From Escherichia phage SF, in sequence record MH359124: DNA of 64,000 nucleotides. One strand, given 5' to 3'. The translations under genes were made by a program, and so were the position numbers. Of the stretch, positions 1,940 to 55,539 are shown one piece after another. Positions within the stretch are counted from its first letter, which is position 1. Every line of letters begins with the position of its first letter. Under the pieces are notes generated by a model that ran no database searches, was not told the origin of the DNA, and saw nothing but the letters and a program-made list of their open reading frames with translations.

Positions 1940-2925
1940 TGAAAACAATTATGAAAGGCTACTTTGGTAGCCACCTTTATGGAACGTCTACTCCTGAATC
2001 TGACGTCGATTTTAAAGAAATTTATGTCCCTCATGCTCGTGATATCTTGACCGGTAACGTTAAAGAACACATGAGCAAGAACACGAATAACACATCTTCT
2101 AAGAACACAAAAGACGACGTGGACCACGAGTTGTATAGTCTCAAATATTTCTTTAAACTAGCTATGGATGGTGAAACTGTCGCATTAGATATGCTTCACA
2201 CTCCGCAAAGTCTAGTAGTTAAATCTGATTTGCCTGACATGTGGAAGTATATTCAAGACAACAGGTCTCGTTTCTATACCACTAACATGAAATCTTATTT
2301 AGGGTATGTCCGTAAGCAAGCTTCTAAATACGGTGTCAAGGGTTCTCGACTGGCTATTCTTCGTCAAGCCCTTAAACGTTCTAATGAATGGGGTCAATAC
2401 TTTGATAATGGTGCAGTAATTCGTTTATCACATATGAAGAATGTTCTGCCCGTAGGTGAATTTGCTTCGTGGGTTGAAACCGAAAACGAGAAAACAGGTA
2501 AGCAAACGTTCTATAATCTGTTAGACCGTAAATTCCAAGACACATTAACCAATAAAGAGTTCAATGCCATCCTGGTTAAACTGGAAGAGAACTATGGCGA
2601 ACGTGCTCGTAAGGCAGAAGCTAACGAAGGTATTGACTGGAAAGCATTGAGTCATGCATGTCGTGGTGGACTTCAACTATTAGAAATTTATAAAACCGGC
2701 GACCTGGTTTACCCACTTCGGGATGCTCCATTTATTCTAGATGTTAAGCTTGGTAAACATACGTTTAAAACTGTACAAGAATTCCTAGAAGATATCGTTG
2801 ACCAAGTTGAACAAGCATCAGAACAAGCTGCCAAGAACGGTATGCAACAAAAAGTAGATATGAGTTTCTGGGATGATTTCCTTGAGCAAGTCTACTTAGA
2901 AAACCACAATTCGTACTATAAATGA
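1936..2925 (+). CDS. Predicted nucleotidyltransferase-fold protein (GS-x9-DxD motif)
   Basis: N-terminal GSHLYGTSTPESDVD resembles the Pol-beta-type NTase signature; rest unassigned. Confidence 0.45.
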   Translation: MMKTIMKGYFGSHLYGTSTPESDVDFKEIYVPHARDILTGNVKEHMSKNTNNTSSKNTKDDVDHELYSLKYFFKLAMDGETVALDMLHTPQSLVVKSDLPDMWKYIQDNRSRFYTTNMKSYLGYVRKQASKYGVKGSRLAILRQALKRSNEWGQYFDNGAVIRLSHMKNVLPVGEFASWVETENEKTGKQTFYNLLDRKFQDTLTNKEFNAILVKLEENYGERARKAEANEGIDWKALSHACRGGLQLLEIYKTGDLVYPLRDAPFILDVKLGKHTFKTVQEFLEDIVDQVEQASEQAAKNGMQQKVDMSFWDDFLEQVYLENHNSYYK

Positions 2926-2926
2926 T

Positions 2927-2947
2927 AAGGGCCTTCGGGCCCTTTAG
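2927..2947 (+). terminator. UUCG-tetraloop hairpin (GGGCC-TTCG-GGCCC), terminator or RNA stability element
   Basis: Seen in sequence. Confidence 0.5.
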
Positions 2948-3031
2948 GGGGTCAAAATATTTTTAAAAAGTAGTGTACATGCTTTTAGGATATGTTATTA
3001 TAGACATATCAAAACAAGAGGAGAAAACAAA

Positions 3032-3250
3032 ATGAAAACCAAAATGTTAGAAATGATTCGTGAAGCTGGTGATAAAGGTCTTATGGTTAACACTCGTGAT
3101 GCAGACCAACGTCAAGCATTCGGTGAACTGAAATCCAAAGGTCTGGTTAAAGCATCCTTGGGAATCGGTAATGCATTACGAGTCACTTTGACTCCTGCTG
3201 GTAAAGCAGTGTTCTTTCAACCTCTTACCAAAAAATCTCGTCGCAAATAA
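3032..3250 (+). CDS. Hypothetical protein (72 aa)
   Basis: ORF with GAGGAG SD. Confidence 0.5.
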   Translation: MKTKMLEMIREAGDKGLMVNTRDADQRQAFGELKSKGLVKASLGIGNALRVTLTPAGKAVFFQPLTKKSRRK

Positions 3251-3252
3251 TT

Positions 3253-3284
3253 GTTTACTTTTGCTTTAAACGTGTTATTATAGA
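3253..3284 (+). promoter_or_regulatory. T4-type early promoter (GTTTAC -35, TATTATAG -10)
   Basis: Consensus-like motifs; member of repeated ...tattatagacctatc... cassette family. Confidence 0.55.
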
Positions 3285-3320
3285 CCTATCGAAACGAAAT
3301 GAGTAAATTTGGAGAATAAA

Positions 3321-4301
3321 ATGTTCAACGTTCAAATCAAAAAAGGTATCTATCGTAATAACGAAATCTCTGGTTCTTATGTTGCCACAAAGACCTGGTT
3401 CCCGGCAAAGCTTAATCCTGAATGTTCCCACTTAGGTGATGGTAAAATTTTCGTTATGATTGATGGTTCTGAACGTGGAGTATGGGTCTTCAAATCAGAC
3501 ATCGTAATGGAAGGAGCTGAGACATCACCAGTTGCAGTTGTTGAAAGCACTGAAGATATGAAAACTCGTATCAACAAACGCTTTAAAGTAATGAGCATGA
3601 TGACGAATGGCATTATCGATGGCAAAATTCGTTCACTCATTATTTCAGGTGCAGCTGGTATTGGTAAGACGTATTCTCTGGATAAAGCACTTAATAATGC
3701 TAATGATAACGGTTTCATCAAATACAAAAGCATTAATGGTAAAATCTCTGGTATTGGCCTTTACGAACAACTTTGGCTCAACCGTGATGCAGACAGCGTT
3801 CTCTTAATCGACGACGTTGATGTATTCTCGGATATGGACATCTTGAACCTTCTTAAAGCAGCATTAGATACCGGTGATAAACGCAAAGTTTGTTGGAGCA
3901 CTGCGTCATCTTATCTCGATGATAAGGGTATTGATAAAGAATTTGAGTTTGAAGGTACTATCGTTTTCATTACAAACGTTGATATCGATAAAGAGTTAGA
4001 ACGCGGTTCGAAACTTGCTCCGCACCTTCAAGCTTTAGTATCTCGTTCAGTGTATCTCGACCTTGGAGTACACTCTAATGAAGAGATTATGGTTCGAGTT
4101 GAAGATGTAATATTATCTACTGACATGATGCAGAAACGTGGTCTGACGGATGCAGAAACGTATAAAGCATTGTCCTGGATGAAGGCTAACGTATCTCGTC
4201 TTCGCAATGTATCATTACGTACGGCTCTTTATGTAGCAGATTTTATTTCAACTGATAAAGACGGTTGGGAGGAAATCTCTGAAGTTACACTTCTGAAATA
4301 A
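3321..4301 (+). CDS. Predicted P-loop NTPase (Walker A GAAGIGKT, Walker B LLIDDVD)
   Basis: Motifs in translation; ATG at 3321 with GGAG SD. Confidence 0.5.
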   Translation: MFNVQIKKGIYRNNEISGSYVATKTWFPAKLNPECSHLGDGKIFVMIDGSERGVWVFKSDIVMEGAETSPVAVVESTEDMKTRINKRFKVMSMMTNGIIDGKIRSLIISGAAGIGKTYSLDKALNNANDNGFIKYKSINGKISGIGLYEQLWLNRDADSVLLIDDVDVFSDMDILNLLKAALDTGDKRKVCWSTASSYLDDKGIDKEFEFEGTIVFITNVDIDKELERGSKLAPHLQALVSRSVYLDLGVHSNEEIMVRVEDVILSTDMMQKRGLTDAETYKALSWMKANVSRLRNVSLRTALYVADFISTDKDGWEEISEVTLLK

Positions 4302-25097: not shown

Positions 25098-27809
25098 ATG
25101 AAAGAATTTTACTTAACGGTTGAACAGATTGGTGATTCAATTTTCGAACGTTATATCGATTCTAACGGACGTGAACGTGTTCGTGAAGTAGAGTATAAGC
25201 CCTCGTTGTTTGCACATTGTCCAGAAAGTCAGGCCACGAAATATTTTGATATCTATGGTAAACCTTGTACTCGTAAACTGTTCGCTAACATGCGTGACGC
25301 GTCTCAATGGATTAAACGCATGGAAGATATCGGACTTGAAGCACTTGGCATGGACGATTTCAAATTGGCGTATTTGTCTGACACTTATAACTATGAAATC
25401 AAATATGACCATACAAAAATTCGTGTGGCTAACTTCGACATCGAAGTAACATCTCCGGACGGGTTCCCTGAGCCGTCACAAGCAAAACATCCGATTGATG
25501 CTATTACCCATTATGACTCAATTGACGACAGGTTCTACGTATTTGATCTATTGAATTCTCCATATGGTAATGTAGAAGAATGGTCTATCGAAATTGCGGC
25601 TAAGCTTCAAGAACAAGGTGGTGATGAAGTTCCGTCTGAAATTATCGATAAAATCATTTATATGCCGTTCGATAACGAAAAAGAATTGTTGATGGAATAT
25701 CTCAACTTCTGGCAACAGAAAACTCCTGTCATTTTGACTGGATGGAACGTTGAGTCATTTGATATTCCATATGTGTATAACCGAATCAAGAATATTTTTG
25801 GCGAATCTACCGCGAAACGTTTATCACCACATCGTAAAACTCGTGTTAAAGTTATCGAAAACATGTATGGTTCTCGTGAAATCATTACATTGTTCGGTAT
25901 CTCTGTTCTTGATTACATTGACCTTTACAAAAAATTCTCTTTTACCAATCAACCGTCATATTCTCTGGATTACATTTCAGAATTTGAATTGAACGTTGGT
26001 AAACTGAAATATGACGGCCCTATTTCTAAGCTTCGTGAAAGCAATCACCAACGATATATTTCTTATAACATTATCGACGTGTATCGTGTATTGCAAATTG
26101 ATGCTAAGCGTCAGTTCATCAACTTGAGTTTGGACATGGGTTATTATGCTAAGATACAGATTCAATCTGTGTTTAGTCCAATTAAAACATGGGATGCTAT
26201 TATTTTTAATAGCCTTAAAGAGCAGAACAAGGTGATTCCACAAGGTCGTTCTCACCCGGTTCAACCTTATCCTGGCGCTTTTGTTAAGGAACCTATTCCA
26301 AATCGATACAAATATGTAATGAGTTTCGACCTTACATCTCTGTATCCAAGTATTATTCGCCAAGTGAATATTAGCCCGGAAACAATAGCAGGAACGTTTA
26401 AAGTAGCTCCACTGCATGATTATATTAATGCAATCGCTGAACGTCCTTCTGATGTGTACAGTTGCTCTCCTAACGGCATGATGTATTATAAAGACCGTGA
26501 TGGTGTAGTTCCAACTGAAATCACTAAGGTCTTTAATCAACGTAAAGAACATAAAGGTTACATGCTTGCAGCTCAACGTAATGGTGAAATAATTAAAGAG
26601 GCATTGCATAATCCTAATCTTTCTGTTGACGAACCATTAGATGTTGATTATCGTTTCGACTTCAGCGATGAGATTAAAGAAAAGATTAAAAAGTTGTCTG
26701 CTAAATCTCTTAATGAAATGTTGTTTAGAGCTCAACGTACTGAAGTTGCAGGTATGACTGCACAGATTAACCGTAAATTGCTCATCAACTCGCTTTATGG
26801 TGCACTTGGAAACGTTTGGTTCCGTTATTACGATTTGCGTAATGCTACTGCAATCACAACATTTGGTCAAATGGCTTTACAGTGGATTGAACGTAAAGTT
26901 AATGAATATCTGAATGAAGTTTGTGGTACAGAAGGCGAAGCTTTCGTTCTATATGGTGATACAGACTCCATTTACGTATCTGCAGATAAAATTATTGATA
27001 AGGTTGGTGAATCTAAATTCCGTGATACCAACCATTGGGTAGACTTCTTAGATAAGTTTGCACGTGAACGTATGGAACCTGCTATTGATAGAGGTTTCCG
27101 TGAAATGTGCGAATACATGAATAATAAGCAACATTTGATGTTCATGGACCGAGAAGCTATCGCTGGGCCTCCACTCGGTTCTAAAGGTATTGGTGGATTC
27201 TGGACTGGTAAGAAACGTTATGCCTTAAACGTGTGGGATATGGAAGGTACTCGTTACGCTGAGCCTAAACTCAAAATCATGGGTCTAGAGACTCAGAAAT
27301 CTTCGACTCCTAAAGCAGTACAGAAAGCTCTTAAAGAATGTATTCGTCGTATGCTTCAAGAAGGTGAAGAATCATTACAAGAATATTTTAAAGAGTTTGA
27401 AAAAGAATTCCGTCGATTGAATTATATTAGCATCGCGTCGGTATCTTCTGCGAATAACATTGCTAAATATGATGTAGGTGGATTCCCTGGTCCCAAATGC
27501 CCGTTCCATATTCGTGGAATTCTGACGTATAACCGGGCTATCAAAGGTAATATCGATGCACCGCAAGTTGTAGAAGGTGAAAAAGTATATGTTCTGCCTT
27601 TACGTGAAGGAAACCCATTCGGTGATAAATGTATCGCATGGCCTTCTGGTACTGAAATCACAGATTTAATTAAAGACGACGTACTTCATTGGATGGACTA
27701 CACTGTTCTCCTTGAGAAGACATTTATTAAACCACTTGAAGGATTCACATCAGCAGCGAAACTCGATTATGAGAAGAAAGCATCTCTGTTCGATATGTTC
27801 GATTTTTGA
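25098..27809 (+). CDS. 43: DNA polymerase gp43 (family B)
   Basis: 903 aa; exo motif FDIEV, YGDTDS polymerase motif. Confidence 0.96.
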   Translation: MKEFYLTVEQIGDSIFERYIDSNGRERVREVEYKPSLFAHCPESQATKYFDIYGKPCTRKLFANMRDASQWIKRMEDIGLEALGMDDFKLAYLSDTYNYEIKYDHTKIRVANFDIEVTSPDGFPEPSQAKHPIDAITHYDSIDDRFYVFDLLNSPYGNVEEWSIEIAAKLQEQGGDEVPSEIIDKIIYMPFDNEKELLMEYLNFWQQKTPVILTGWNVESFDIPYVYNRIKNIFGESTAKRLSPHRKTRVKVIENMYGSREIITLFGISVLDYIDLYKKFSFTNQPSYSLDYISEFELNVGKLKYDGPISKLRESNHQRYISYNIIDVYRVLQIDAKRQFINLSLDMGYYAKIQIQSVFSPIKTWDAIIFNSLKEQNKVIPQGRSHPVQPYPGAFVKEPIPNRYKYVMSFDLTSLYPSIIRQVNISPETIAGTFKVAPLHDYINAIAERPSDVYSCSPNGMMYYKDRDGVVPTEITKVFNQRKEHKGYMLAAQRNGEIIKEALHNPNLSVDEPLDVDYRFDFSDEIKEKIKKLSAKSLNEMLFRAQRTEVAGMTAQINRKLLINSLYGALGNVWFRYYDLRNATAITTFGQMALQWIERKVNEYLNEVCGTEGEAFVLYGDTDSIYVSADKIIDKVGESKFRDTNHWVDFLDKFARERMEPAIDRGFREMCEYMNNKQHLMFMDREAIAGPPLGSKGIGGFWTGKKRYALNVWDMEGTRYAEPKLKIMGLETQKSSTPKAVQKALKECIRRMLQEGEESLQEYFKEFEKEFRRLNYISIASVSSANNIAKYDVGGFPGPKCPFHIRGILTYNRAIKGNIDAPQVVEGEKVYVLPLREGNPFGDKCIAWPSGTEITDLIKDDVLHWMDYTVLLEKTFIKPLEGFTSAAKLDYEKKASLFDMFDF

Positions 27810-27849: not shown

Positions 27850-28485
27850 ATGAAAACTACTCCTATTACTATCGCTATTGACGCAATCATAAAACAAGCT
27901 TCTTCTTTGGCCGCTATGGCCAAAGTAATTAGTCAAAACCCTGCTCGTTATAATGCTATTTTAGAAACTCTTCGACGCCCGGGACTTAGTAATTATGAAA
28001 GCCGAGTAATTATTACAGGTGTTGGTAAGAACGCTAATATCGCAACTAAAGCTTCTGAGACTTTTGCTTCACTCGGTATACCGAGTATGTACTTGAACAC
28101 TGGGCATTATTCTCACGGTGATGCAGGATTCATTGCGCCTAATGATGTGTTGATTCATATTAGTCGTTCTGGTAAAACTGAAGAAATGATAGGTGTGGCT
28201 AAGCATCTTAAAATGATTCGTCCGAACGTCAAACAGATTCTGTTGCATTGTAACCCAGACATTCCGCAAGAAAATGAAGCCCTTTTTGATTACTCTTTCT
28301 GTACAGGCATCGCTGTAGAAGTTGACGAGAACTCTTTAGCTCCGACTATGTCCACTACATTGTTGTTAGCGCTTATCGATACGTTTGCTATCAACCTTTC
28401 GTCTGAACGTGGATTTACCTCTAATGACTTCCTTAAGTTCCACCCTGGTGGTGCACTAGGTGCCATGTTACGAGGCGAACAATGA
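27850..28485 (+). CDS. SIS-domain sugar-phosphate isomerase, arabinose-5-phosphate isomerase (KdsD/GutQ) type, no CBS domains
   Basis: ITGVGKN, HGDAG, ISRSGKTEE, APTMSTT, FHPGGALG match the KdsD-type SIS signature. Confidence 0.8.
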   Translation: MKTTPITIAIDAIIKQASSLAAMAKVISQNPARYNAILETLRRPGLSNYESRVIITGVGKNANIATKASETFASLGIPSMYLNTGHYSHGDAGFIAPNDVLIHISRSGKTEEMIGVAKHLKMIRPNVKQILLHCNPDIPQENEALFDYSFCTGIAVEVDENSLAPTMSTTLLLALIDTFAINLSSERGFTSNDFLKFHPGGALGAMLRGEQ

Positions 28486-28625
28486 AAGCAATAACAATAG
28501 GACTTTTACTATTGATGCTTGTCATGACTATCTACTGGAGCTTAACGGCTCCAGTAATGGTCCCGACTCTTATAATCGGATGGATTATGATTGGACTACA
28601 AGCAAAGTATGAATGCTTTAACTAG
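28482..28625 (+). CDS. Hypothetical small membrane peptide (47 aa)
   Basis: Hand-translated MKAITIGLLLLMLVMTIYW...; ATG overlaps upstream stop (ATGA). Confidence 0.35.
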   Translation: MKAITIGLLLLMLVMTIYWSLTAPVMVPTLIIGWIMIGLQAKYECFN

Positions 28626-28666: not shown

Positions 28667-30352
28667 ATGAAAAAAGCTGTTATTCTTGGTGCTGGACTGG
28701 CAACTCGTTTGTATCCAATAACGCATCATATTCCTAAGGTGCTTGTTAACTATAAACAAGACACTATTCTGAGCAATTTGTATACAATCTATTCTGACCT
28801 TGGCGCAGATGAAATTATTGTAGTAGTTCATTCAAAATTTGCTGAAACCGTTCGAGCTTATTGTGAGCAAGAAGGGTTCAATGTGACTATTCGTACAGTT
28901 GATGAAGCGTATGGTTCTGCTTATGCTCTTGCTAAATTACACAAAGATTTAGACGGCCATAATGTAATTGTTAACTGGTGTGATATTATTCCCGATTTTG
29001 GTTCATGGTCTTGGAATGTTAACGCAATCTATGTTAAGGGTGACGAATGTCGATATAATTTCGACGGTGAAAATATCACTAACGTAGGTTCAACAGGTGG
29101 TAATGTTGTAGGAATTTATCAGTTCAAAGACTGGGAATTCTATATGGGTTCTACTGATGAGGAAATTCATGAATACTGCAAAGGACGCGATTTCGTAGAA
29201 TTCCTTTACGGCAGTGCATTCAATAAATCAGAGCTTATGAATCTAATTGATTTAGGTGATATGCCTAAACTTGAAAAAGCTCATGAAGTTCGTGAACTTA
29301 ATCGTAGTTTTAATGCAGTTGAAATTGGTGAAGAAACTGTAACTAAATTCGCATTAACCGAACAGGGTCGAGCTCTTCAGAAAGATGAGATTTCGTGGTA
29401 TCTTAAAGTGAAATCAGATTCAGTTCCTCAGTTAGTTTCTGTTAATGAAAATAACTTTGAAATGGAACGCATTAAAGGTAAGCCGGCATTTGAATATATT
29501 AAATCCAAATCAAGTCTTGCTCGACCACAAATTGTTGATGCAATCTTAGATGCACTGAAATTCAGCACAGACACTTATTTTGTAAGTCCTGAAACTGTTC
29601 GTCGTGATTTCACTAAAGAATTCTATACTAAAGTTATTGATCGTTGCGAAAGTATTCAACCATTGATTGATTCATTTGGTAAAATCACACATGTGAACTA
29701 CACTAAGATCGGACGTCTGAAGCCAATGTTGAAACAAGCTTTAGAACACCTTATTCGTTATCATAACCGTTCTCAGGGACAGTACTCTGTTATTCATGGC
29801 GACCCGAACTTCAGTAATACTATGATTACTGATAATGGTGAAGTCAAGTTTATCGACCCTCGTGGATATTTTGGCGAAACCAAGATTTACGGACCAAAAT
29901 TGTATGATGAAGCTAAAGTGCTTTACGCCGTTTCAGGTTATGATGAATTCAACGCTAATCCGACCTGGGGGCAGTTTACTATTGATGAAACAACTTGTAA
30001 TGTGACTATTAACATCAATCCATTAGTTTACAAATATGGAAAGATGAGTTCGTTTAACGAGTATCATCATTTGGCAGTGGCAATTATCTGGATTGCATTA
30101 GGTGGTTATTTCAAGAATAATCCACTTAAAGCGGTAGCCGCATATTATAAAGGTATGGAACTTCTGACTAAGCAATTACGTAACATGGGCCGTGTACTTC
30201 AGGACGGCTCTATTAGTTACGACGTAGCAGAACCTGTAACGGCTACTCTGATTACAAAAAATCCTGGTAAATGGGTACTAACTGATAAAGAAACTGGTGT
30301 TTCTTATCGTCCAATCGGTGGCGATATCACTCATCAATGGGAACGAATCTAA
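28667..30352 (+). CDS. Bifunctional sugar-1-phosphate nucleotidyltransferase (N-terminal) / APH-type sugar kinase (C-terminal)
   Basis: N-terminus ILGAGLATRL (NTP-transferase G-x-G-x-R loop); C-terminus IHGDPNFSN...FIDPRG (APH/ChoK catalytic loop and metal-binding D). Confidence 0.75.
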   Translation: MKKAVILGAGLATRLYPITHHIPKVLVNYKQDTILSNLYTIYSDLGADEIIVVVHSKFAETVRAYCEQEGFNVTIRTVDEAYGSAYALAKLHKDLDGHNVIVNWCDIIPDFGSWSWNVNAIYVKGDECRYNFDGENITNVGSTGGNVVGIYQFKDWEFYMGSTDEEIHEYCKGRDFVEFLYGSAFNKSELMNLIDLGDMPKLEKAHEVRELNRSFNAVEIGEETVTKFALTEQGRALQKDEISWYLKVKSDSVPQLVSVNENNFEMERIKGKPAFEYIKSKSSLARPQIVDAILDALKFSTDTYFVSPETVRRDFTKEFYTKVIDRCESIQPLIDSFGKITHVNYTKIGRLKPMLKQALEHLIRYHNRSQGQYSVIHGDPNFSNTMITDNGEVKFIDPRGYFGETKIYGPKLYDEAKVLYAVSGYDEFNANPTWGQFTIDETTCNVTININPLVYKYGKMSSFNEYHHLAVAIIWIALGGYFKNNPLKAVAAYYKGMELLTKQLRNMGRVLQDGSISYDVAEPVTATLITKNPGKWVLTDKETGVSYRPIGGDITHQWERI

Positions 30353-30738
30353 TGCACCGTGTAGAAAACATGCTTAATCTTTGTTTTGATGTCGATGATT
30401 GTATAACAGAGTGGAATAACAATCGTGATTACGTGAACTTCAAACCAGACGTCGAAATGGTGTCTGCCATTAATGCCCTGTATGATGCAGGGCATACCAT
30501 AACGCTTTACACTGCTCGCGGTATGAAGTCAGTCGGTCCTGGTCGTATAGCAATTGACATTCTCCCAAGTCTGATTCAGAACTTGTCAAACATTGGATTG
30601 AAGTACCATAATTTGCTAACACATAAACCAGTATATGATTGGATTATCGACGACAAAGCTATGCGTCCTGACGAATTCAAAGCTCTTATGAATAAAGGCG
30701 AATTCGAAACATTTAAATCATATAAACCGAATCTATAA
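30352..30738 (+). CDS. HAD-superfamily phosphatase (KdsC-like motif DVDDCIT)
   Basis: DxD nucleophile motif near N-terminus, DDK motif near C-terminus; TAATG coupling to upstream gene. Confidence 0.6.
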   Translation: MHRVENMLNLCFDVDDCITEWNNNRDYVNFKPDVEMVSAINALYDAGHTITLYTARGMKSVGPGRIAIDILPSLIQNLSNIGLKYHNLLTHKPVYDWIIDDKAMRPDEFKALMNKGEFETFKSYKPNL

Positions 30739-30798: not shown

Positions 30799-31959
30799 AT
30801 GAATACTTTTAAAATCGGAACGAATTTTGATTTAGCTCTTCTTGATAAAATCGTAGAGCTCAATAAAACTTATCCTAATAGCTTGATAAACGAAGTATAC
30901 GGCTCTACAAGAGAAATGGCTTTTGTAGCAGCCAGACCTGATTTTAGGCTTCCTGACGTTGACAAAAAGATGTTAGAAGATTACGTTAAACGTTGTAACG
31001 AATTGGGTATTTGCTTTAACTATACACTCAACACGATAAATCCTGGTTCAAAAAGAGAACTAGTTGAGTGGAAGAAGAAAGCTATTCAGGATTATGTTCA
31101 GTATCTTTGGTCAATAGGTGTATGGCGTATTACTATCGCTAACCCTGTTGTTATGGAAATTGTTCGTGAAGTCAATAAAGACATTGAGATTGAAGTTTCA
31201 ACAATTCTACATGTCGATGCTGTAACTCAAATCAAATACTTGCATGACCAATATAATATCAAAAAGGTCTGCTGTGGAATTCATAAGAACCGTTCAGTTT
31301 CTTTCCTGAAGCGTGCAGCAGAGTTTTGTAATAAGAACAATATAATATTTGAAGTTCTCGTAAATGAATTCTGCTCTAATGCTGGTAAAGGGTATACAAC
31401 ACATTGTAGCTATCGTGACTCTTGCTATATTTTCCATAGCACCGATGTTACAGTAGATGATGCCAAATCCTTAAATGGATATCCAATGCAACACTGTATT
31501 AAAGCTCGTGATACAGATCCATTTAACTGGTTGAGAACTCGTTTTGTTCGTCCTCAAGATTTGAAACTTTATAATGATATTGGTATCACTCAATTTAAAG
31601 TTTCGGGACGTACAGGTAGCACAGACTACATTTTGAAAGTTCTTGAAGCTTATGCTTCTGAAAAGTTTGAAGGTAATTTGTTAGAACTGTGGAAGCCTTT
31701 AGAGACCATTTTCACTCTTGAAAATGAGACCGAGTTTTCACATACGGTAAATATTGAAACCTCTTTGTTAGATGGCTTTTTAGAAAAAAGGTGGTTCAAA
31801 CATCCGGATTTCGATTGTGCTAATGAAATCTGCGGGACGACGTGTACATATTGTGAAAGATATTATAAACGTCAGTTATCTAAAAATGGGTTATCAGAAA
31901 ACTCTATATCTATTATTGATATAACTAACTCTGATGACGCTTTGAGGTACCCAGAATGA
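30799..31959 (+). CDS. Cys-rich protein, possible peptidase-U32-family / Fe-S enzyme
   Basis: YTLNTI, EIEVSTILH, EVLVNEFCS...HCSYRDSC resemble U32 blocks; C-terminal CGTTCTYC (CX3CX2C). Confidence 0.4.
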   Translation: MNTFKIGTNFDLALLDKIVELNKTYPNSLINEVYGSTREMAFVAARPDFRLPDVDKKMLEDYVKRCNELGICFNYTLNTINPGSKRELVEWKKKAIQDYVQYLWSIGVWRITIANPVVMEIVREVNKDIEIEVSTILHVDAVTQIKYLHDQYNIKKVCCGIHKNRSVSFLKRAAEFCNKNNIIFEVLVNEFCSNAGKGYTTHCSYRDSCYIFHSTDVTVDDAKSLNGYPMQHCIKARDTDPFNWLRTRFVRPQDLKLYNDIGITQFKVSGRTGSTDYILKVLEAYASEKFEGNLLELWKPLETIFTLENETEFSHTVNIETSLLDGFLEKRWFKHPDFDCANEICGTTCTYCERYYKRQLSKNGLSENSISIIDITNSDDALRYPE

Positions 31960-32040
31960 TTTCTAGAAAAAACTTTTAACCACCAACTTAACGAAGAGAT
32001 TTTGACTATGAAAATTAACAGCAACGAACAAATTCTTAAA

Positions 32041-32061
32041 AAGGCCCTTATGGGCCTTTTT
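32041..32061 (+). terminator. Hairpin GGCCC-TTAT-GGGCC followed by T5
   Basis: Seen in sequence. Confidence 0.55.
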
Positions 32062-32237
32062 GAAACTAAAGCGGCTAAAGTGATTAAAGAGCCTGTTCAA
32101 TTGTAATACTACGCTGATGCATTTCTTCATAGCGTTCTTGGAAGTATCGATGCTGAAGCTTTACGTTATATCAACATCGCTAAGAAATTCAAATAAGCTT
32201 TATGAATTGAGTATATAATAACTGTATTGAGGTAAAC

Positions 32238-32954
32238 ATGGGAAAACATAACACAATGAAATATATTAAAGCCGCAGATTTTCAATCCGCATTTAAAGCT
32301 GTCAATCGTGAAATTTTAGAAAATCCACAGTTCGTTACTGATTCTCGTATTGGACGTTGTAATGAAATTGGGTCTATGACAGTAGTTGTTGATACCCCTT
32401 CATCATTCAAAATGACCGACCCACGTATTAATCGCATCTCTTATGAATATGCTGAAGATTTCTGGAAATTTATGATTTCTGGTGGTACTGATGCAGAAGA
32501 AGCATTTAAGGCATATCCTAATGTCGCTAAATTTATTTCTAAACCAAAATCAGATGCTTTGCCTACGAACTTCAACACTTTCTATGGTCCTCGCATTGCG
32601 GCCCAGTTACCAGCTCTTCTCAAAGAACTTAAAGAGAAACCTAATTCACGAAGAGTTGTGTTCCAAATTCTAGAAAGTTCAGATCAGGCTTTGCTTGATT
32701 CAGACGAAACACTTGAATATCCATGTACTGACTCAGTGACTTATTATATTCGTGATGGTAAGCTTTATACCCACTGTCATATGCGTTCTCAGAACTGTGC
32801 TGTTGTTATGCAGTTGGATTTTTATCTCCAAGGAAAATTACTTCATTATATCGCTAACGAATGTGGTGTAGAAGTTGGTGATTATACTCATACCATGGTA
32901 AGTGCCCATGTGTTTGAACGTGATTTTGATTATGTTAAAGGATTCCTTGACTAA
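32238..32954 (+). CDS. 42: dCMP hydroxymethylase (thymidylate-synthase fold), divergent from T4 gp42
   Basis: NSRR, PCTDS (nucleophile Cys), YIRD, HMRSQN...QLDFY align with T4 dCH catalytic blocks; syntenic between 43 and uvsX. Confidence 0.7.
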   Translation: MGKHNTMKYIKAADFQSAFKAVNREILENPQFVTDSRIGRCNEIGSMTVVVDTPSSFKMTDPRINRISYEYAEDFWKFMISGGTDAEEAFKAYPNVAKFISKPKSDALPTNFNTFYGPRIAAQLPALLKELKEKPNSRRVVFQILESSDQALLDSDETLEYPCTDSVTYYIRDGKLYTHCHMRSQNCAVVMQLDFYLQGKLLHYIANECGVEVGDYTHTMVSAHVFERDFDYVKGFLD

Positions 32955-33853
32955 TGGCTATTTTCCGCGTACCTATCTTGAGTATGCGGTCTTATGAAAC
33001 TGGACAGTATGCTATCCTTAAGGATGGCAACTTCCAACTTCATTTGCACCGTGCTAATCCAGGTGATGTGATTACATATCCACGTAATGCATCTGATATT
33101 AAAGAATGTGAACGTCTTTTCCCGGAATTTAAGTTTGTTCCATTATGGTATAAAGATAACGCATATAACACTCGTAAATATTTCTGGTCTGAAAATGAAT
33201 TTGTGGTTGATTCATTAATTGATTATTATGATTGTGATTTTCTAATCACAGATATCACTGGATATGACGGCACTTTTGACGTAGAATTCAATTTCAATAT
33301 CACTGCGGACCCTAATAAACCACGTTTTTATATTGACGAATTCTTAAAAACCGACATGTTGTCTGTTAATCGTTCACTTCAAACTACTGTGTTGAATGAA
33401 CGTCAAAAAGAAGTGCTGGTTAACGCAGGTGCAGATGGTAATAAGATTATCGTAACCCGGAAAGTTATACGTCCTTCCATCATGCAGCGTCTTGTAGGTG
33501 ATTTGGCTCCTATTCATCTAGATGGTATTTTTCATCCATTTCGAATTAGTGACCCGTGTTATCGTTTTGAACAAGTGGTTGAATGTGCAATTCAATTAGG
33601 TCAACCGCTTTATATAACCGATCCAAATAATAGCTTCGACAGAAATAAGTATCCTGAAGAAGCGCTGATTCGAATTTTTAATCCAACTAAAACTGAGTAC
33701 TATCAAATTCTTAAAGGACGGCCGAAGATTCAATATTTCGAAAATCCTGAAGAAGTATTCCATCCAGGTCTTGGCGAGTTCATCTACTTTAACGCTTTAA
33801 TTTCTTCACCGTATAATATACCTAAATATGAAGATGTCGTAATCGAGGAATAA
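32954..33853 (+). CDS. Hypothetical protein (299 aa) at the position of T4 beta-gt
   Basis: ORF; no motif recognised. Confidence 0.5.
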   Translation: MAIFRVPILSMRSYETGQYAILKDGNFQLHLHRANPGDVITYPRNASDIKECERLFPEFKFVPLWYKDNAYNTRKYFWSENEFVVDSLIDYYDCDFLITDITGYDGTFDVEFNFNITADPNKPRFYIDEFLKTDMLSVNRSLQTTVLNERQKEVLVNAGADGNKIIVTRKVIRPSIMQRLVGDLAPIHLDGIFHPFRISDPCYRFEQVVECAIQLGQPLYITDPNNSFDRNKYPEEALIRIFNPTKTEYYQILKGRPKIQYFENPEEVFHPGLGEFIYFNALISSPYNIPKYEDVVIEE

Positions 33854-33854
33854 A

Positions 33855-34403
33855 ATGGCTAAAATTATTTTAGTAGATGGCCCGGATAATGCTGGTAAAA
33901 CAACTTTCATTAATGACATAATGGAAATTAGTGAAAGATATGTAAAGATTGATTTCCCTAAACGAACAGTTGATGGACGTTTCGACGTTAAGTCTCGAAA
34001 TGAAGTTGGCTGTTTCGAAACGATGTTGAATTATTTAGACCCTACTAAGATTTATCTGTTAGACCGTGGATATATTAGTAACTGGGTTTATGGACGTATT
34101 CGACAAGATGCGGACTCGGTTCTTGACGTTTATGAACAGGATTATGTTCGTCTTTGCCAAAACCACGATGTGTTCACAATTATTTTAACACGTAACGAAA
34201 TGACTGAAAGTTTTGAAGACGACCTTATTACTTTGTCTTCATTCGGTTTTAATACAGTAATTTCATATTTTGAAGAGTTTGCAATCCATAACGAAATCCA
34301 AACGTATCAATTACTTAATCATGATGGTGCTAACAAAGTTATAGGATTTAATGCAAGCGAACGTAATAATTTGATTACAGAAATCATCAAATGGGCTCGT
34401 TAA
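33855..34403 (+). CDS. P-loop nucleotide kinase, thymidylate/dNMP-kinase-like
   Basis: Walker A GPDNAGKTT and DRGY motif resembling the TMPK DRY motif. Confidence 0.55.
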   Translation: MAKIILVDGPDNAGKTTFINDIMEISERYVKIDFPKRTVDGRFDVKSRNEVGCFETMLNYLDPTKIYLLDRGYISNWVYGRIRQDADSVLDVYEQDYVRLCQNHDVFTIILTRNEMTESFEDDLITLSSFGFNTVISYFEEFAIHNEIQTYQLLNHDGANKVIGFNASERNNLITEIIKWAR

Positions 34404-34423
34404 GAGCCTGTTTAAAGTTTTTA

Positions 34424-34503: not shown

Positions 34504-35676
34504 ATGTCTGATTTAAAATCTCGTCTGATTAAAGCTTCTACTTCTAAAATGACCGCAGACTTGACTAAGTCTAAGTTGTTTAATAATCGCGATGAAGTCC
34601 CTACTCGTATTCCGATGTTGAATATTGCATTAGGTGGTGCACTGAATGCTGGGTTGCAATCAGGCTTAACTATTTTTGCTGCTCCTTCTAAACACTTTAA
34701 AACGTTGTTTGGACTGACCATGGTTGCAGCATATATGAAGAAATATAAAGATGCAATTTGTTTGTTCTATGATTCTGAATTTGGTGCTTCAGAATCTTAT
34801 TTTCGTTCAATGGGTGTTGATTTAGACCGTGTAGTTCATACTCCGATTCAATCTGTCGAACAACTTAAAGTTGATATGACTAATCAGCTTGATGCTATCG
34901 AACGCGGTGATAAAGTTATTATCTTTATCGATTCAATCGGTAATACTGCATCTAAGAAAGAAACTGAAGATGCATTGAACGAGAAAGTCGTAGGTGATAT
35001 GTCTCGTGCTAAGGCACTTAAATCTCTTTTCCGTATTGTGACTCCTTATCTGACTATTAAAGATATTCCGTGTGTTGCAATCAACCATACAGCAATGGAA
35101 ATTGGCGGATTGTATCCTAAAGAGATTATGGGTGGTGGTACAGGTATTCTTTATTCTGCCAACACGGTATTTTTTATCTCTAAACGTCAGGTTAAAGAAG
35201 GTACAGAATTGACCGGTTATGACTTCACGTTGAAAGCAGAAAAATCTCGTACGGTTAAAGAAAAATCTACTTTCCCAATCACGGTTAATTTCGATGGTGG
35301 TATTGACCCATTCAGTGGCTTGTTAGAAATGGCAACTGAAATTGGTTTTGTAGTTAAGCCTAAAGCTGGTTGGTATGCTCGTGAATTCCTTGACGAGGAA
35401 ACAGGCGAAATGATTCGTGAAGAGAAATCATGGCGTGCTAAAGCTACTGATTGTGTAGAATTCTGGGGACCGTTGTTTAAACACAAACCTTTCCGAGATG
35501 CAATTGAAACTAAATATAAGCTAGGTGCTATCTCTTCTATTAAAGAAGTTGATGACGCTGTTAACGACCTTATTAATTGCAAAGCAACAACTAAAGTTCC
35601 GGTTAAAACTTCTGATGCTCCGTCTGCAGCAGATATAGAAAACGACCTTGACGAAATGGAAGATTTCGATGAATAA
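34504..35676 (+). CDS. uvsX: Recombinase UvsX (RecA-like)
   Basis: 390 aa, matches T4 UvsX. Confidence 0.95.
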   Translation: MSDLKSRLIKASTSKMTADLTKSKLFNNRDEVPTRIPMLNIALGGALNAGLQSGLTIFAAPSKHFKTLFGLTMVAAYMKKYKDAICLFYDSEFGASESYFRSMGVDLDRVVHTPIQSVEQLKVDMTNQLDAIERGDKVIIFIDSIGNTASKKETEDALNEKVVGDMSRAKALKSLFRIVTPYLTIKDIPCVAINHTAMEIGGLYPKEIMGGGTGILYSANTVFFISKRQVKEGTELTGYDFTLKAEKSRTVKEKSTFPITVNFDGGIDPFSGLLEMATEIGFVVKPKAGWYAREFLDEETGEMIREEKSWRAKATDCVEFWGPLFKHKPFRDAIETKYKLGAISSIKEVDDAVNDLINCKATTKVPVKTSDAPSAADIENDLDEMEDFDE

Positions 35677-54438: not shown

Positions 54439-55539
54439 ATGAAAGTTATGTTTATCCCATCTCGTGCAGTCCCATTTAATCCTGACCGTGTACAAGGTGG
54501 TCTTGAAGCAGTACATTTAAATGTGCTGAAATATTTAGTTTCTATTGGTGCCGATATTGATTATATCGGTTTTGATAATGACACGTTTGGTGACTGGAAA
54601 GTTACACACCACCCTGTTGGACATCTGACTAAATTCAGTCTAGGTATGAGTTATACTATGGCTCGTAAGATTGTTGAACTAGCCGGCATCCATGAATACG
54701 ATTTTGTTGTTACTATGGAACCGACTAAACTAACCGTTCAGGCAATTAAAGACGCAGGTCTCTCTAAAGTTCATAAGAATTTTATGGCAACACCATTTGA
54801 ACCTGTATCTCGTGGCATTGTTCAAATTTGGGACCAGACTATTCAAATTCATAAGAATGGTGGTAAGAGTTATGCTCCTACTAAAGCCTTCCGTGAATTT
54901 GAACGCAAATATTGTTATATGACTTCAGGTCTGACTGACAAAATTGATTATGATTATTGGCGAGCAAATCCGTTGTTTGAAGCCGAAGATTATCCGGTTA
55001 TTTGTTTGAATGAGAAACCTGAAGTTCTTCCTGCGACTGATCTGATTATTAGTGCACAACGTTATGACACTAAAATGCGTCGTACTGATGTTGCTCTTGA
55101 AGCGATTAAAGCACTAGGCGAAAATGGTGTAGGATACTGTCCAAGCAAATGGGCACCACCAGCTAAATATCCTGTTATTATTGATGCTCCACACAGTGAA
55201 ATCATGGAACGTCTTAAAACAGCTAAAGCACTTATTAATACGTGTCCTGACACAGGTACGGTAGAGAATAGTTCTATTGAAGCCATCTCTAAAGGTGTCC
55301 CTGTAATCCAGTTAGTTTTTAAGGATTATCCTCATGCGACATTCGAATACGACCCAGATACTGTGCGTGTAGAAATTGATTCCTCTACTCCTAAGAAAGA
55401 AGTAGTTGCGCTTTACACAAAAGCTGTATTAGAATTCACTGACACATACGAAGCTCGAGTTAAACGTGCTGAAGCAGTATGGAAGAAGTATAACCGAGAT
55501 GCAGTTGTTGCGATGTGGGATAAAATCTTCACAGCGTAA
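54439..55539 (+). CDS. GT-B-fold glycosyltransferase (GT4-like), candidate DNA hydroxymethylcytosine glycosyl(arabinosyl)transferase
   Basis: C-terminal GTVENSSIEAISKGVPVI resembles the GT4 EX7E region; inserted between 39 and rIIA where T4 has only a small ORF. Confidence 0.6.
   Translation: MKVMFIPSRAVPFNPDRVQGGLEAVHLNVLKYLVSIGADIDYIGFDNDTFGDWKVTHHPVGHLTKFSLGMSYTMARKIVELAGIHEYDFVVTMEPTKLTVQAIKDAGLSKVHKNFMATPFEPVSRGIVQIWDQTIQIHKNGGKSYAPTKAFREFERKYCYMTSGLTDKIDYDYWRANPLFEAEDYPVICLNEKPEVLPATDLIISAQRYDTKMRRTDVALEAIKALGENGVGYCPSKWAPPAKYPVIIDAPHSEIMERLKTAKALINTCPDTGTVENSSIEAISKGVPVIQLVFKDYPHATFEYDPDTVRVEIDSSTPKKEVVALYTKAVLEFTDTYEARVKRAEAVWKKYNRDAVVAMWDKIFTA

Follow-up and report, generated by a model that had tools for sequence, protein, structure and literature searches.

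Which activated sugar does a T-even-like phage make with a single polypeptide that joins a sugar-phosphate nucleotidyltransferase to a kinase, and from which substrate? The question is raised by an open reading frame (ORF) in Escherichia phage SF (sequence record MH359124), an RB69-like phage of T-even type (Mosigvirus), of which we analyzed a stretch of 64,000 nucleotides, here called the window. A preliminary description, made from the sequence alone, had read this ORF as a fused nucleotidyltransferase-kinase that generates an activated sugar by the logic of salvage enzymes, which phosphorylate a free sugar. The observation itself is confirmed, and both the architecture and the arabinose that had been put forward for an assay survive our analysis; the free-sugar logic finds no support. 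In our assessment, the product of the ORF is very probably the enzyme that activates the sugar for cytosine arabinosylation in RB69-like phages, acting by the steps proposed below.

The gene and its module

The gene, which is intact in the window, and its parts are as follows.

28667..30352, + strand: bifunctional nucleotidyltransferase-kinase, 561 aa (ORF; orthologue of RB69 ORF53_52c [gp52:53]; analogue of HY126 AfhE)
28667..29281, + strand: sugar-1-phosphate nucleotidyltransferase domain, aa 1-205 (NTP loop, catalytic motifs)
29282..30187, + strand: protein-kinase-like domain of the APH/choline-kinase fold, aa 206-507 (K227, E241, catalytic loop, metal-binding motif)
30188..30349, + strand: C-terminal extension, aa 508-561 (small beta elements, modeled at pLDDT 81-90)

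The protein is orthologous over its full length to the RB69 protein, with 99.6% identity to ORF053c+052c over 561 aa (tblastn); the match falls into two pieces because of a known frameshift error in the RB69 GenBank record, in which a sequencing error divides the gene in two (PMC6024577). The JS09 protein is 100% identical, DLP3 gp82 is 57% identical, and PHROG 4098 covers the whole length. RB69 ORF53_52c, HY126 AfhE, and DLP3 gp82 share with it the family, the architecture, the neighbors, and the locus between the genes for DNA polymerase gp43 and UvsX, and ORF53_52c differs by a few substitutions and in nothing substantive. Both the gene and the pathway to which it belongs have been published before, and our finding is not novel, because RB69 ORF53_52c was described in 2018, when it was put forward for UDP-arabinose synthesis (PMC6024577). 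The expectation that the enzyme generates an activated (NDP-) sugar was correct. RB69 gp52:53 is moreover regarded as analogous to HY126 AfhE by Lee et al., NAR 2026 (PMC13326640). The 54%-identical Thanatos orthologue, TH1_060, is essential for propagation (PMC12838424).

Around the gene lie the following features.

27850..28485, + strand: SIS-domain D-arabinose-5-phosphate (A5P) isomerase without CBS domains (RB69 gp55 equivalent), ribulose-5-P to arabinose-5-P
28482..28625, + strand: small, strongly hydrophobic ORF, 47 aa, RB69 ORF054c-like (sequence; OR062945 annotation; JS98 orf054c-like)
30352..30738, + strand: cap-less HAD phosphatase, 128 aa, RB69 gp51/AfhF equivalent (motifs, PDB, TIGR01689)
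30799..31959, + strand: Peptidase_U32-family protein, 386 aa, RB69 gp50 (Pfam PF01136, E 6.3e-11)
32238..32954, + strand: thymidylate-synthase (ThyA) homologue, dCMP 5-hydroxylase (5hodCMP synthase, RB69 gp48; Pfam Thymidylat_synt, E 2.3e-15)
32954..33853, + strand: putative first DNA arabinosyltransferase, 299 aa, RB69 gp46:47 equivalent (assigned by synteny)
33855..34403, + strand: P-loop nucleotide kinase, 182 aa, RB69 gp45 equivalent (OR062945 and JS98 annotations; PMC13326640 Table 1)
34389..34413, + strand: terminator-like hairpin (10-bp stem, then a T-run) closing the module before uvsX (consensus scan only)
54439..55539, + strand: second DNA arabinosyltransferase, 366 aa, RB69 ORF003c/gp3 equivalent, between the topoisomerase gene and rIIA

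The enzyme shares its module with an A5P isomerase, a HAD phosphatase, a dCMP 5-hydroxylase, and an arabinosyltransferase. The isomerase is recognized by Pfam SIS (E 1e-10), TIGR00393 KpsF/GutQ (E 2e-32), and KdsD (E 7e-31), and by PDB entries 3etn (E 2.6e-25) and 2xhz API (E 3.5e-19); its stop is overlapped by the ATG of the small ORF (ATGA). The start codon of the HAD phosphatase gene likewise overlaps the stop of the nucleotidyltransferase-kinase gene (TAATG). The phosphatase carries motif I (D13-V-D15-D-C-I-T) and motif IV (I-I-D-D-K) and matches TIGR01689, capsule biosynthesis phosphatase (E 3e-13), PDB 9iqw (∼99% identical over 128 aa), and 1xpj (E 2.6e-10). In GenBank records, the phage HAD gene is mislabeled “phosphoheptose isomerase.” The ThyA homologue has near-identical PDB entries (9iqc, 9ir2, and 9iqu), and dCMP 5-hydroxylase activity has been demonstrated for RB69 gp48 (PMC13326640). 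The near-identity of 9iqw and 9iqc to the HAD protein and the ThyA homologue of the window suggests that the phage of the published enzymology has essentially the same genome as the window; the connection of these entries with HY126 is one that we infer. The PDB search, which returned near-identical entries for both neighbors, found no solved structure of the nucleotidyltransferase-kinase itself.

The first transferase gave no Pfam match and no PDB sequence match; it is syntenic with JS98 orf047c-like, DLP3 gp79, and Thanatos TH1_063, and RB69 gp46:47 is assigned to GT-B in Table 1 of PMC13326640. The second is conserved in RB69-like genomes, at record position 2523-3620, and shares 42% identity with genes of Acinetobacter phages that are labeled “DNA alpha-glucosyltransferase” (both by tblastn). 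The nucleotide kinase, which gave no Pfam match, presumably takes 5-hydroxy-dCMP toward the triphosphate. A promoter scan returned 21 sites against 26.8 expected.

This module—SIS, nucleotidyltransferase-kinase, phosphatase, ThyA homologue, glycosyltransferase, and kinase—is kept in DLP3, Thanatos, JS98, and Tenacibaculum phage PTm5. The last of these has a histidine phosphatase where the others have the HAD enzyme, and this nonhomologous replacement argues that the phosphatase step is required.

Two conserved catalytic domains

The union of a sugar-phosphate nucleotidyltransferase with an APH/choline-kinase-fold kinase in one polypeptide, as the preliminary description had it, is borne out by the folds and motifs of both domains and, for the N-terminal one, also by Pfam. 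The N-terminal domain carries the NTP loop G8-A-G10-L-A-T-R14-L (G-x-G-x-R) followed by the catalytic Lys24, with further motifs at Trp104-x-Asp106 and D195-L-G-D198-x-x-K201, and it scores above the curated threshold of Pfam PF00483 over aa 3-99 (39.1 bits versus a cutoff of 21.2). Its GT-A-like nucleotidyltransferase fold is complete, including the C-terminal part that binds the metal and the sugar phosphate. All its strong structural neighbors are nucleotidyltransferases, and in the PDB the best match by sequence is to LicC, which is a CTP:phosphocholine cytidylyltransferase (E 2e-05). Since these neighbors variously use UTP, dTTP, CTP, or GTP, the NTP specificity of the domain is not readable from them. 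The earlier caution that neither NTP nor sugar is evident from sequence was fair; both are now in the literature, as UTP and D-arabinofuranose, in the enzymology cited in PMC13326640.

The C-terminal domain has the bilobal kinase fold, a catalytic loop (H377-G-D379-P-N-F-S-N384) that conforms to H-x-D-x4-N, and a metal-binding motif equivalent to DFG (I-D397-P-R399-G). A Lys-Glu pair is formed by K227 (strand 224-229) and E241 (helix 232-247), both invariant or nearly so; judging from their positions in the predicted secondary structure, K227 is probably the ATP-anchoring lysine and E241 its partner. For the earlier assignment of this half to the APH fold, fold and catalytic motifs speak in favor, and the Pfam score for APH (PF01636 clan) does not, at 14.4 bits against a threshold of 23.2; Fructosamin_kin (17.1 versus 22.4) and EcKL (16.2 versus 22) also fell below their thresholds. 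Searches of the PDB with phmmer and a family profile returned nucleotidyltransferases only, plus RIO2 at E 0.084, so that detection of the kinase domain, missed by sequence-only searches, needed a structure model; some homologues do have precomputed PF01636 matches. The kinase fold matches choline kinases, the best structural matches include MurU, LicC, and LicA, and the neighbors of the kinase domain include glucosamine kinase 6hwj and methylthioribose kinase 2olc. As modeled, the domain is a divergent APH/choline-kinase member, recognizable by fold.

Across 120 homologues, some with as little as 27% identity, neither domain varies in its catalytic residues, and thus both activities are under selection. 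In the alignment of 121 sequences, D379, N384, and D397 are present in every one, and G10, R14, and K24 in 119, the remaining two being gaps; basic residues that are invariant besides the ATP-binding lysine are R213, R326, R399, K417, and K488. The C-terminal tail of ∼55 residues, present in 79 sequences and absent from 42, is found in T4-like phage orthologues; the long fusions lack it, as do most metagenomic homologues. Some family members are fused to cupin isomerases, and distant homologues fuse HAD, SIS, nucleotidyltransferase, and kinase in a single chain. The family reaches giant-virus-like contigs, where such single-chain HAD-SIS-nucleotidyltransferase-kinase enzymes lie within glycan clusters.

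A proposed route from ribulose-5-phosphate to UDP-D-arabinofuranose

Our analysis establishes the ORF and both folds, shows that both catalytic sets are conserved and that RB69 ORF53_52c is an orthologue, and documents the gene neighborhood with its conservation; we infer the role of each named catalytic residue and that the step order in the SF phage is the one described for AfhE/AfhF. On this proposal, (i) the phage SIS isomerase would turn host ribulose-5-P into D-arabinose-5-P; (ii) the C-terminal kinase would phosphorylate the anomeric C1-OH to give arabinofuranose-1,5-bisphosphate, with ATP held by K227/E241, D379 as the catalytic base, and Mg2+ bound by N384 and D397; (iii) the HAD phosphatase would take off the 5-phosphate; (iv) the N-terminal nucleotidyltransferase, through its G-x-G-x-R loop, K24, D106, and D195/D198, would join Araf-1-P and UTP into UDP-D-arabinofuranose and PPi; and (v) the GT-B transferases (32954-33853 and 54439-55539) would place the arabinose on 5-hydroxycytosine, whose precursor the ThyA homologue would supply. 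DNA arabinosylated in this way resists restriction enzymes and Cas nucleases.

The final steps agree with published biochemistry: the virion DNA of RB69 and its close relatives bears arabinose on 5-hydroxycytosine, phage arabinosyltransferases accept UDP-Araf and not UDP-Arap as donor in vitro, and DLP3 gp76+gp77 add arabinose to DNA from UDP-Araf. For the earlier steps, HY126 AfhE is described, in He et al. 2026 as cited in PMC13326640, as a kinase acting on D-arabinose-5-phosphate that is also a UDP-D-arabinose pyrophosphorylase and that converts D-arabinose 5-phosphate to Araf-1,5-bisphosphate; in the same cited account, the AfhF phosphatase removes the 5-phosphate, UDP-Araf is made by the N-terminal domain only afterward, and the substrates of that last step are UTP and Araf-1-P. 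PMC13326640 itself assigns the N-terminal domain to UDP-Ara formation and the C-terminal domain to the kinase step. Arabinose proved the right choice of sugar. The salvage logic fared less well: an A5P isomerase and a start-overlapping HAD phosphatase flank the gene, and AfhE, in that cited account, acts on D-arabinose 5-phosphate. What is reported for AfhE/AfhF is de novo synthesis that starts from ribulose-5-P and includes an intervening phosphatase, and by analogy the SF enzyme would follow this route; the same logic follows from the neighbors, with the isomerase upstream and the HAD phosphatase downstream, followed by hydroxylase, glycosyltransferase, and nucleotide kinase.

The order of steps is the point on which a rival reading has most to offer. 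The published account is not wholly self-consistent, because the text and Table 1 of PMC13326640 give different orders: the table keeps an older one, in which the phosphatase gp51 converts Araf5p to free Ara and the kinase acts on arabinose, the C-terminal domain converting Ara to Araf1p. In a salvage-type order of this kind, the HAD enzyme would free D-arabinose from arabinose-5-P, the kinase would phosphorylate C1, and the nucleotidyltransferase would make NDP-arabinose, and the APH-fold sugar kinases 6hwj and 2olc do use nonphosphorylated sugars. We nevertheless consider this order unlikely, given that the text of PMC13326640, citing the HY126 enzymology, gives Araf5P as the substrate of the kinase and Araf-1,5-P2 as that of the phosphatase, that the set of isomerase, kinase, phosphatase, and nucleotidyltransferase shares the logic of the ADP-heptose pathway, and that the invariant R213, R326, R399, K417, and K488 could fit an anionic substrate.

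An enzyme dedicated to some other molecule—another pentose, a hexose, or phosphocholine as in LicC/LicA—is very improbable, even with LicC as the best PDB sequence match (E 2e-05) and with a kinase fold that matches choline kinases. The relatives in giant-virus glycan clusters or fused to cupin isomerases likewise lend it something, since they suggest that the family may handle several sugars; for the RB69 group, however, arabinose on 5-hydroxycytosine in virion DNA, the arabinose-5-P isomerase family of the adjoining gene, and the inactivity of TH1_060 on xylose-1-P with any NTP (PMC12838424) speak against it. Least probable of all, to the point of being hardly tenable, is that the protein acts as a DNA glycosyltransferase in its own right, as the database label “glycosyltransferase family A,” the CDD GT-A superfamily label mentioned in PMC6024577, and the naming of TH1_060 as a glycosyltransferase candidate in PMC12838424 might imply. 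We reject a GT-A glycosyltransferase identity for the N terminus: its signature is the nucleotidyltransferase G-x-G-x-R...K motif, its strong structural neighbors are without exception nucleotidyltransferases, TH1_060 glycosylated neither DNA nor dCMP nor dCTP in vitro (PMC12838424), and the module has GT-B transferases of its own, with DLP3 gp76+gp77 doing this work from UDP-Araf.

Compared with known systems, arabinose activation as proposed here has a close analogue in the ADP-heptose pathway of GmhA, HldE, and GmhB, in which a SIS isomerase is followed by a bifunctional C1 kinase, a HAD enzyme then cleaves off the distal phosphate, and the NDP-sugar is formed by the bifunctional enzyme's second domain. 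The pathway logic is identical, but this is analogy and not homology. HldE joins an N-terminal ribokinase-fold kinase to an adenylyltransferase of the HIGH-motif cytidylyltransferase fold, folds unrelated to those of the phage enzyme, whose kinase is protein-kinase-like and C-terminal and whose nucleotidyltransferase is GT-A-like. The 110 structural matches listed were all GT-A-like nucleotidyltransferases or protein-kinase-like kinases, with no ribokinase-type or HIGH-motif cytidylyltransferase-type description among them. Because the folds differ, we rejected membership in the HldE family, and the pathway analogy alone stands.

The same pair of folds with the same two chemistries occurs in AmgK-MurU, which serves MurNAc recycling, and in LicA-LicC (including fused LicCA), which activates phosphocholine: an APH/choline-kinase-fold enzyme forms a phosphate ester, which a GT-A-like nucleotidyltransferase then turns into an NDP or CDP conjugate. 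These systems differ in that their substrate is nonphosphorylated (MurNAc/GlcNAc or choline, where the phage enzyme would use a pentose phosphate), no phosphatase intervenes, and the activities usually reside in two proteins. Fkp of Bacteroides, a fucokinase/GDP-fucose pyrophosphorylase, and the Leishmania arabino/fucokinase-pyrophosphorylase also place an N-terminal nucleotidyltransferase and a C-terminal anomeric kinase in one chain to make an NDP-sugar; their kinases, however, are of the GHMP fold, they use free sugars to make pyranose GDP-sugars, and they have no phosphatase step. Salvage enzymes of the Fkp type are the parallel that the preliminary description had in mind.

The U32 neighbor and the biology of arabinosylated phages

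The value of this analysis lies in the correct filing of a known finding and the correction of the free-sugar logic; its possible new point is the neighboring U32 gene. The U32 protein (30799..31959) has nine invariant cysteines, and in other phages its gene pairs with a chorismate mutase gene, a linkage to chorismate mutase/DAHP synthase. No chorismate mutase was found in the window, where the best profile match (E 0.02) lies at an unrelated position, and no U32 gene was found in Acinetobacter phages. We tentatively propose, as an idea that we rate slightly less likely than not, that the U32 protein is an Fe-S, prephenate-dependent, O2-independent hydroxylase that would provide 5-hydroxy(deoxy)cytosine under conditions in which the O2/flavin-dependent ThyA-homologue hydroxylase is unable to act. 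A role of gp50 as an anaerobic cytosine hydroxylase was not found stated in the accessible literature.

The nucleotidyltransferase-kinase provides the donor of the arabinose with which the phage hypermodifies its DNA. This hypermodification shields a sizable group of T-even-like phages against both restriction enzymes and CRISPR nucleases, and it also exposes them to type IV restriction systems; the group includes many phages considered for therapy against E. coli, Klebsiella, and Acinetobacter. If the U32 protein is indeed an anaerobic cytosine hydroxylase, this would explain modification without oxygen: enteric phages could arabinosylate their DNA in the anoxic gut, and the U32 hydroxylase family would gain a deoxynucleotide or DNA substrate.

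The fused enzyme and its conserved domains

The window encodes a member of the RB69 gp52:53/AfhE group (AfhE being the analogue in phage HY126), a nucleotidyltransferase-kinase (NTase-kinase) fusion that is real, well described and already known. An unbroken frame of 561 codons spans 28667-30352 on the + strand (start ATG, stop TAA) and carries the three motifs given in the preliminary description, ILGAGLATRL (aa 6-15), HGDPNFSN (aa 377-384) and FIDPRG (aa 395-400); a ribosome-binding site, GAGGA, lies 7 nt 5' of the start, and the opposite strand is rich in stops. The gene is flanked by those for DNA polymerase gp43 (25098-27809) and UvsX (34504-35676) and shares 98-99% DNA identity with T-even, RB69-like members of the genus Mosigvirus (F2, JS09 and HX01 among them). 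Its product is 100% identical to the protein of JS09, PHB12 and other phages, 99.6% identical to RB69 ORF053c+052c, entered in GenBank as two genes, and 54% identical to TH1_060 of Shewanella phage Thanatos. Thomas et al. (2018) showed the RB69 pair to be a single 561-residue gene, ORF53_52c, and proposed that it acts with ORF055c in UDP-arabinose synthesis (PMC6024577); BASEL-collection records label the gene "putative enzyme involved in UDP-arabinose biosynthesis."

At the N terminus, Pfam detects NTP_transferase above threshold (aa 3-99, E 8.5e-10); in the C-terminal half, its kinase-like matches (around aa 344-409) are all below threshold. The full-length PHROGs match is to a family without assigned function, and PDB sequence searches, including one with a 42-sequence profile, returned nucleotidyltransferases only, apart from RIO2 at E 0.084. 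For gp52:53, Lee et al. (2026) describe a MurU/LicC-like N-terminal domain and an APH/choline-kinase-like C-terminal domain (PMC13326640). An AlphaFold2 model built from the 42-sequence alignment is confident (pLDDT 93.3, pTM 0.90), and structural matches, together with what is known of these systems, place the same fold pair in AmgK-MurU and LicA-LicC. Salvage enzymes such as Fkp have GHMP kinases and take free sugars as substrates.

Across 120 homologues, with identity as low as 27%, the two domains always occur together, and residues of both the nucleotidyltransferase (G10, R14, K24, W104, D106, D195, D198 and K201) and the kinase (K227, E241, H377, G378, D379, N384, D397, P398, R399 and G400) are invariant or nearly so, a conservation by which each domain looks active throughout the family's lineages. 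By alignment, a C-terminal tail of about 55 residues (aa 508-561, 30188-30349, + strand) is found in 79 of 121 sequences, being kept in T4-like phage orthologues and missing from all long fusions and most metagenomic homologues. It is modeled as small beta elements (pLDDT 81-90) and might be an interaction element.

Gene neighborhood and the route to UDP-Araf

The surrounding genes, in order, are as follows.

Upstream of the NTase-kinase gene: SIS protein, 211 aa, lacking CBS domains and belonging to the KpsF/GutQ/KdsD arabinose-5-phosphate isomerase family
28482-28625, +: very hydrophobic 47-aa ORF, MKAITIGLLLLMLVMTIYWSLTAPVMVPTLIIGWIMIGLQAKYECFN, between the isomerase and NTase-kinase genes
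Downstream of the NTase-kinase gene: cap-less HAD phosphatase, 128 aa, motifs DVDDC and IIDDK
30799-31959, +: Peptidase_U32 protein, after the HAD phosphatase
After the U32 gene: thymidylate-synthase homologue, near-identical to PDB 9iqc, 9ir2 and 9iqu
Next: 299-aa protein, with no match at sequence level
Next: kinase-like protein, 182 aa
Next: terminator-like hairpin
54439-55539: second transferase gene, equivalent of RB69 ORF003c

The phosphatase is about 99% identical to PDB 9iqw, and the 47-aa ORF is kept in Dhakavirus JS98 as an orf054c-like ORF. Stop and start codons overlap both at the NTase-kinase/phosphatase junction (TAATG, 30350-30354) and at that between the isomerase and the 47-aa ORF (ATGA, 28482-28485), which points to coupled translation of the enzymes in this pathway.

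According to Lee et al. (2026), arabinosylated 5-hydroxycytosine is the modified base, RB69 gp48 acts as dCMP 5-hydroxylase and UDP-Araf works as donor in vitro (PMC13326640). Citing He et al. 2026, they also report that AfhE converts D-arabinose 5-phosphate to Araf-1,5-bisphosphate, that the phosphatase AfhF then takes off the 5-phosphate and that UDP-Araf forms last. We consider it very probable that the NTase-kinase serves UDP-Araf synthesis for this arabinosylation, and hold the exact order of steps with lower confidence. In the scheme with most support, the SIS isomerase would convert ribulose-5-P to arabinose-5-P, the kinase domain would form Araf-1,5-P2, the HAD phosphatase would release Araf-1-P and the NTase domain would yield UDP-Araf, from which arabinose would pass to 5-hydroxycytosine. 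GmhA/HldE/GmhB of ADP-heptose synthesis follow the same logic with unrelated folds, as structural comparison and what is known of that pathway indicate.

The main alternative, a salvage order through free arabinose, still appears in Table 1 of Lee et al. (PMC13326640), and the preliminary description had implied it; that description was right about the architecture, the product class and arabinose, and its free-sugar logic departs from the published route. We regard the salvage order as improbable. That the enzyme acts on a different substrate seems very unlikely; TH1_060, essential for phage propagation, has no activity on xylose-1-P (PMC12838424). Still more doubtful is a direct glycosyltransferase role for this protein.

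The U32 protein as a candidate hydroxylase

The U32 gene is RB69 gp50, beside the dCMP 5-hydroxylase gene, and Lee et al. call it only a "sugar or heterocycle reductase," without further discussion (PMC13326640). Its family includes RlhA, TrhP and UbiU/V, which are O2-independent hydroxylases: 5-hydroxycytidine in 23S rRNA needs RlhA, 5-hydroxyuridine in tRNA needs TrhP, and UbiU/V reportedly take their oxygen from prephenate. Clusters of the 4Fe-4S type have been shown for UbiU/V and are a prediction for most other members (PMC5727448, PMC6599085, PMC6747719, PMC10990095).

Nine cysteines (C158, C192, C203, C209, C233, C340, C345, C349 and C352) are invariant in 121 U32 sequences, and phage orthologues keep at least 82% identity across genera, compared to only 50-72% for the NTase-kinase. 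Their hosts are Enterobacterales and Shewanella; Acinetobacter is not among the organism names listed for 220 U32 phage records, 57 Acinetobacter phage records have the NTase-kinase, and the gene is absent from Acinetobacter phage DLP3. This host-range correlation is weakened because JS98-like coliphages also lack the gene. Directly 3' of the U32 gene, some phages carry a type II chorismate mutase (54 phage records), and in Thanatos the pair has relocated together.

L008 5658-5903: chorismate mutase, Klebsiella phage (PWKp16)
L009 5658-6002: chorismate mutase, Erwinia/Serratia phages (Erwinia phage Virsaitis27)
L017 12061-12318: chorismate mutase, Shewanella phage (Thanatos)
L012 4545-8804: NTase-kinase homologue, U32 gene, DAHP synthase and epimerase/reductase in a row, 80-kb phage-like metagenomic contig

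No chorismate mutase was found across all 64 kb of the window, where the corresponding slot (31960-32237) has only a short ORF049c-like frame without the ATG start that OR062945 gives it. The metagenomic NTase-kinase homologue (484 aa, 29% identity, E 3e-50) is accompanied by DAHP synthase (E 2.6e-70), the first enzyme of the shikimate pathway, and a nearby histidine phosphatase; the locus lacks any ThyA homologue within 6 kb. On other large contigs, the U32 gene adjoins dCMP deaminase, thymidylate kinase, dNK, NT5C and UDG genes. Taken together, the cysteines, conservation, host range, chorismate mutase and contig contexts indicate that the U32 protein may be a prephenate-dependent, O2-independent pyrimidine C5 (cytosine) hydroxylase of the arabinosylation pathway, related to RlhA/TrhP. 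We found no proposal of such a role for gp50 in the literature covered, to which He et al. 2026 and Mahler et al. 2025 do not belong.

The module beyond Mosigvirus

The pathway module is kept in DLP3, Thanatos and JS98. In phage PTm5 of Tenacibaculum, the gene between those for the NTase-kinase and the ThyA homologue, where T4-like phages have the HAD phosphatase, belongs to the histidine-phosphatase family (L006 7571-8275), a nonhomologous replacement which argues that the phosphatase step is required. The modules of JS98 and PWKp16 include the NTase-kinase but have no annotated SIS isomerase, and JS98 orf43 gives no SIS match in Pfam; both phages presumably draw arabinose-5-P from host KdsD/GutQ. 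On giant-virus-like contigs, HAD, SIS and NTase-kinase form single chains of about 890-955 aa (31-35% identity with the core), so that what the phages encode in three genes is tied together as a single pathway.

L002 8001-10781: HAD-SIS-NTase-kinase fusion
L014 7001-9679: HAD-SIS-NTase-kinase fusion
L015 7001-9862: HAD-SIS-NTase-kinase fusion

These contigs carry Rpb2, Rpb10, MutS-HNH, a 1553-aa family-B polymerase and UCH. A few kilobases from its fusion gene, L014 also has a second fusion (1-1144, more than 805 aa) with the Pfam order NTP_transferase, HAD and then EcKL/APH kinase.

The L014 and L015 fusions adjoin glycosyltransferase, epimerase or sulfotransferase genes, and one family member (P0091) comes from a eukaryotic transcriptome. 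Given these neighbors, the giant-virus-like contigs and the eukaryotic member, our data suggest that the same sugar-activation pathway serves glycans outside phage DNA modification.
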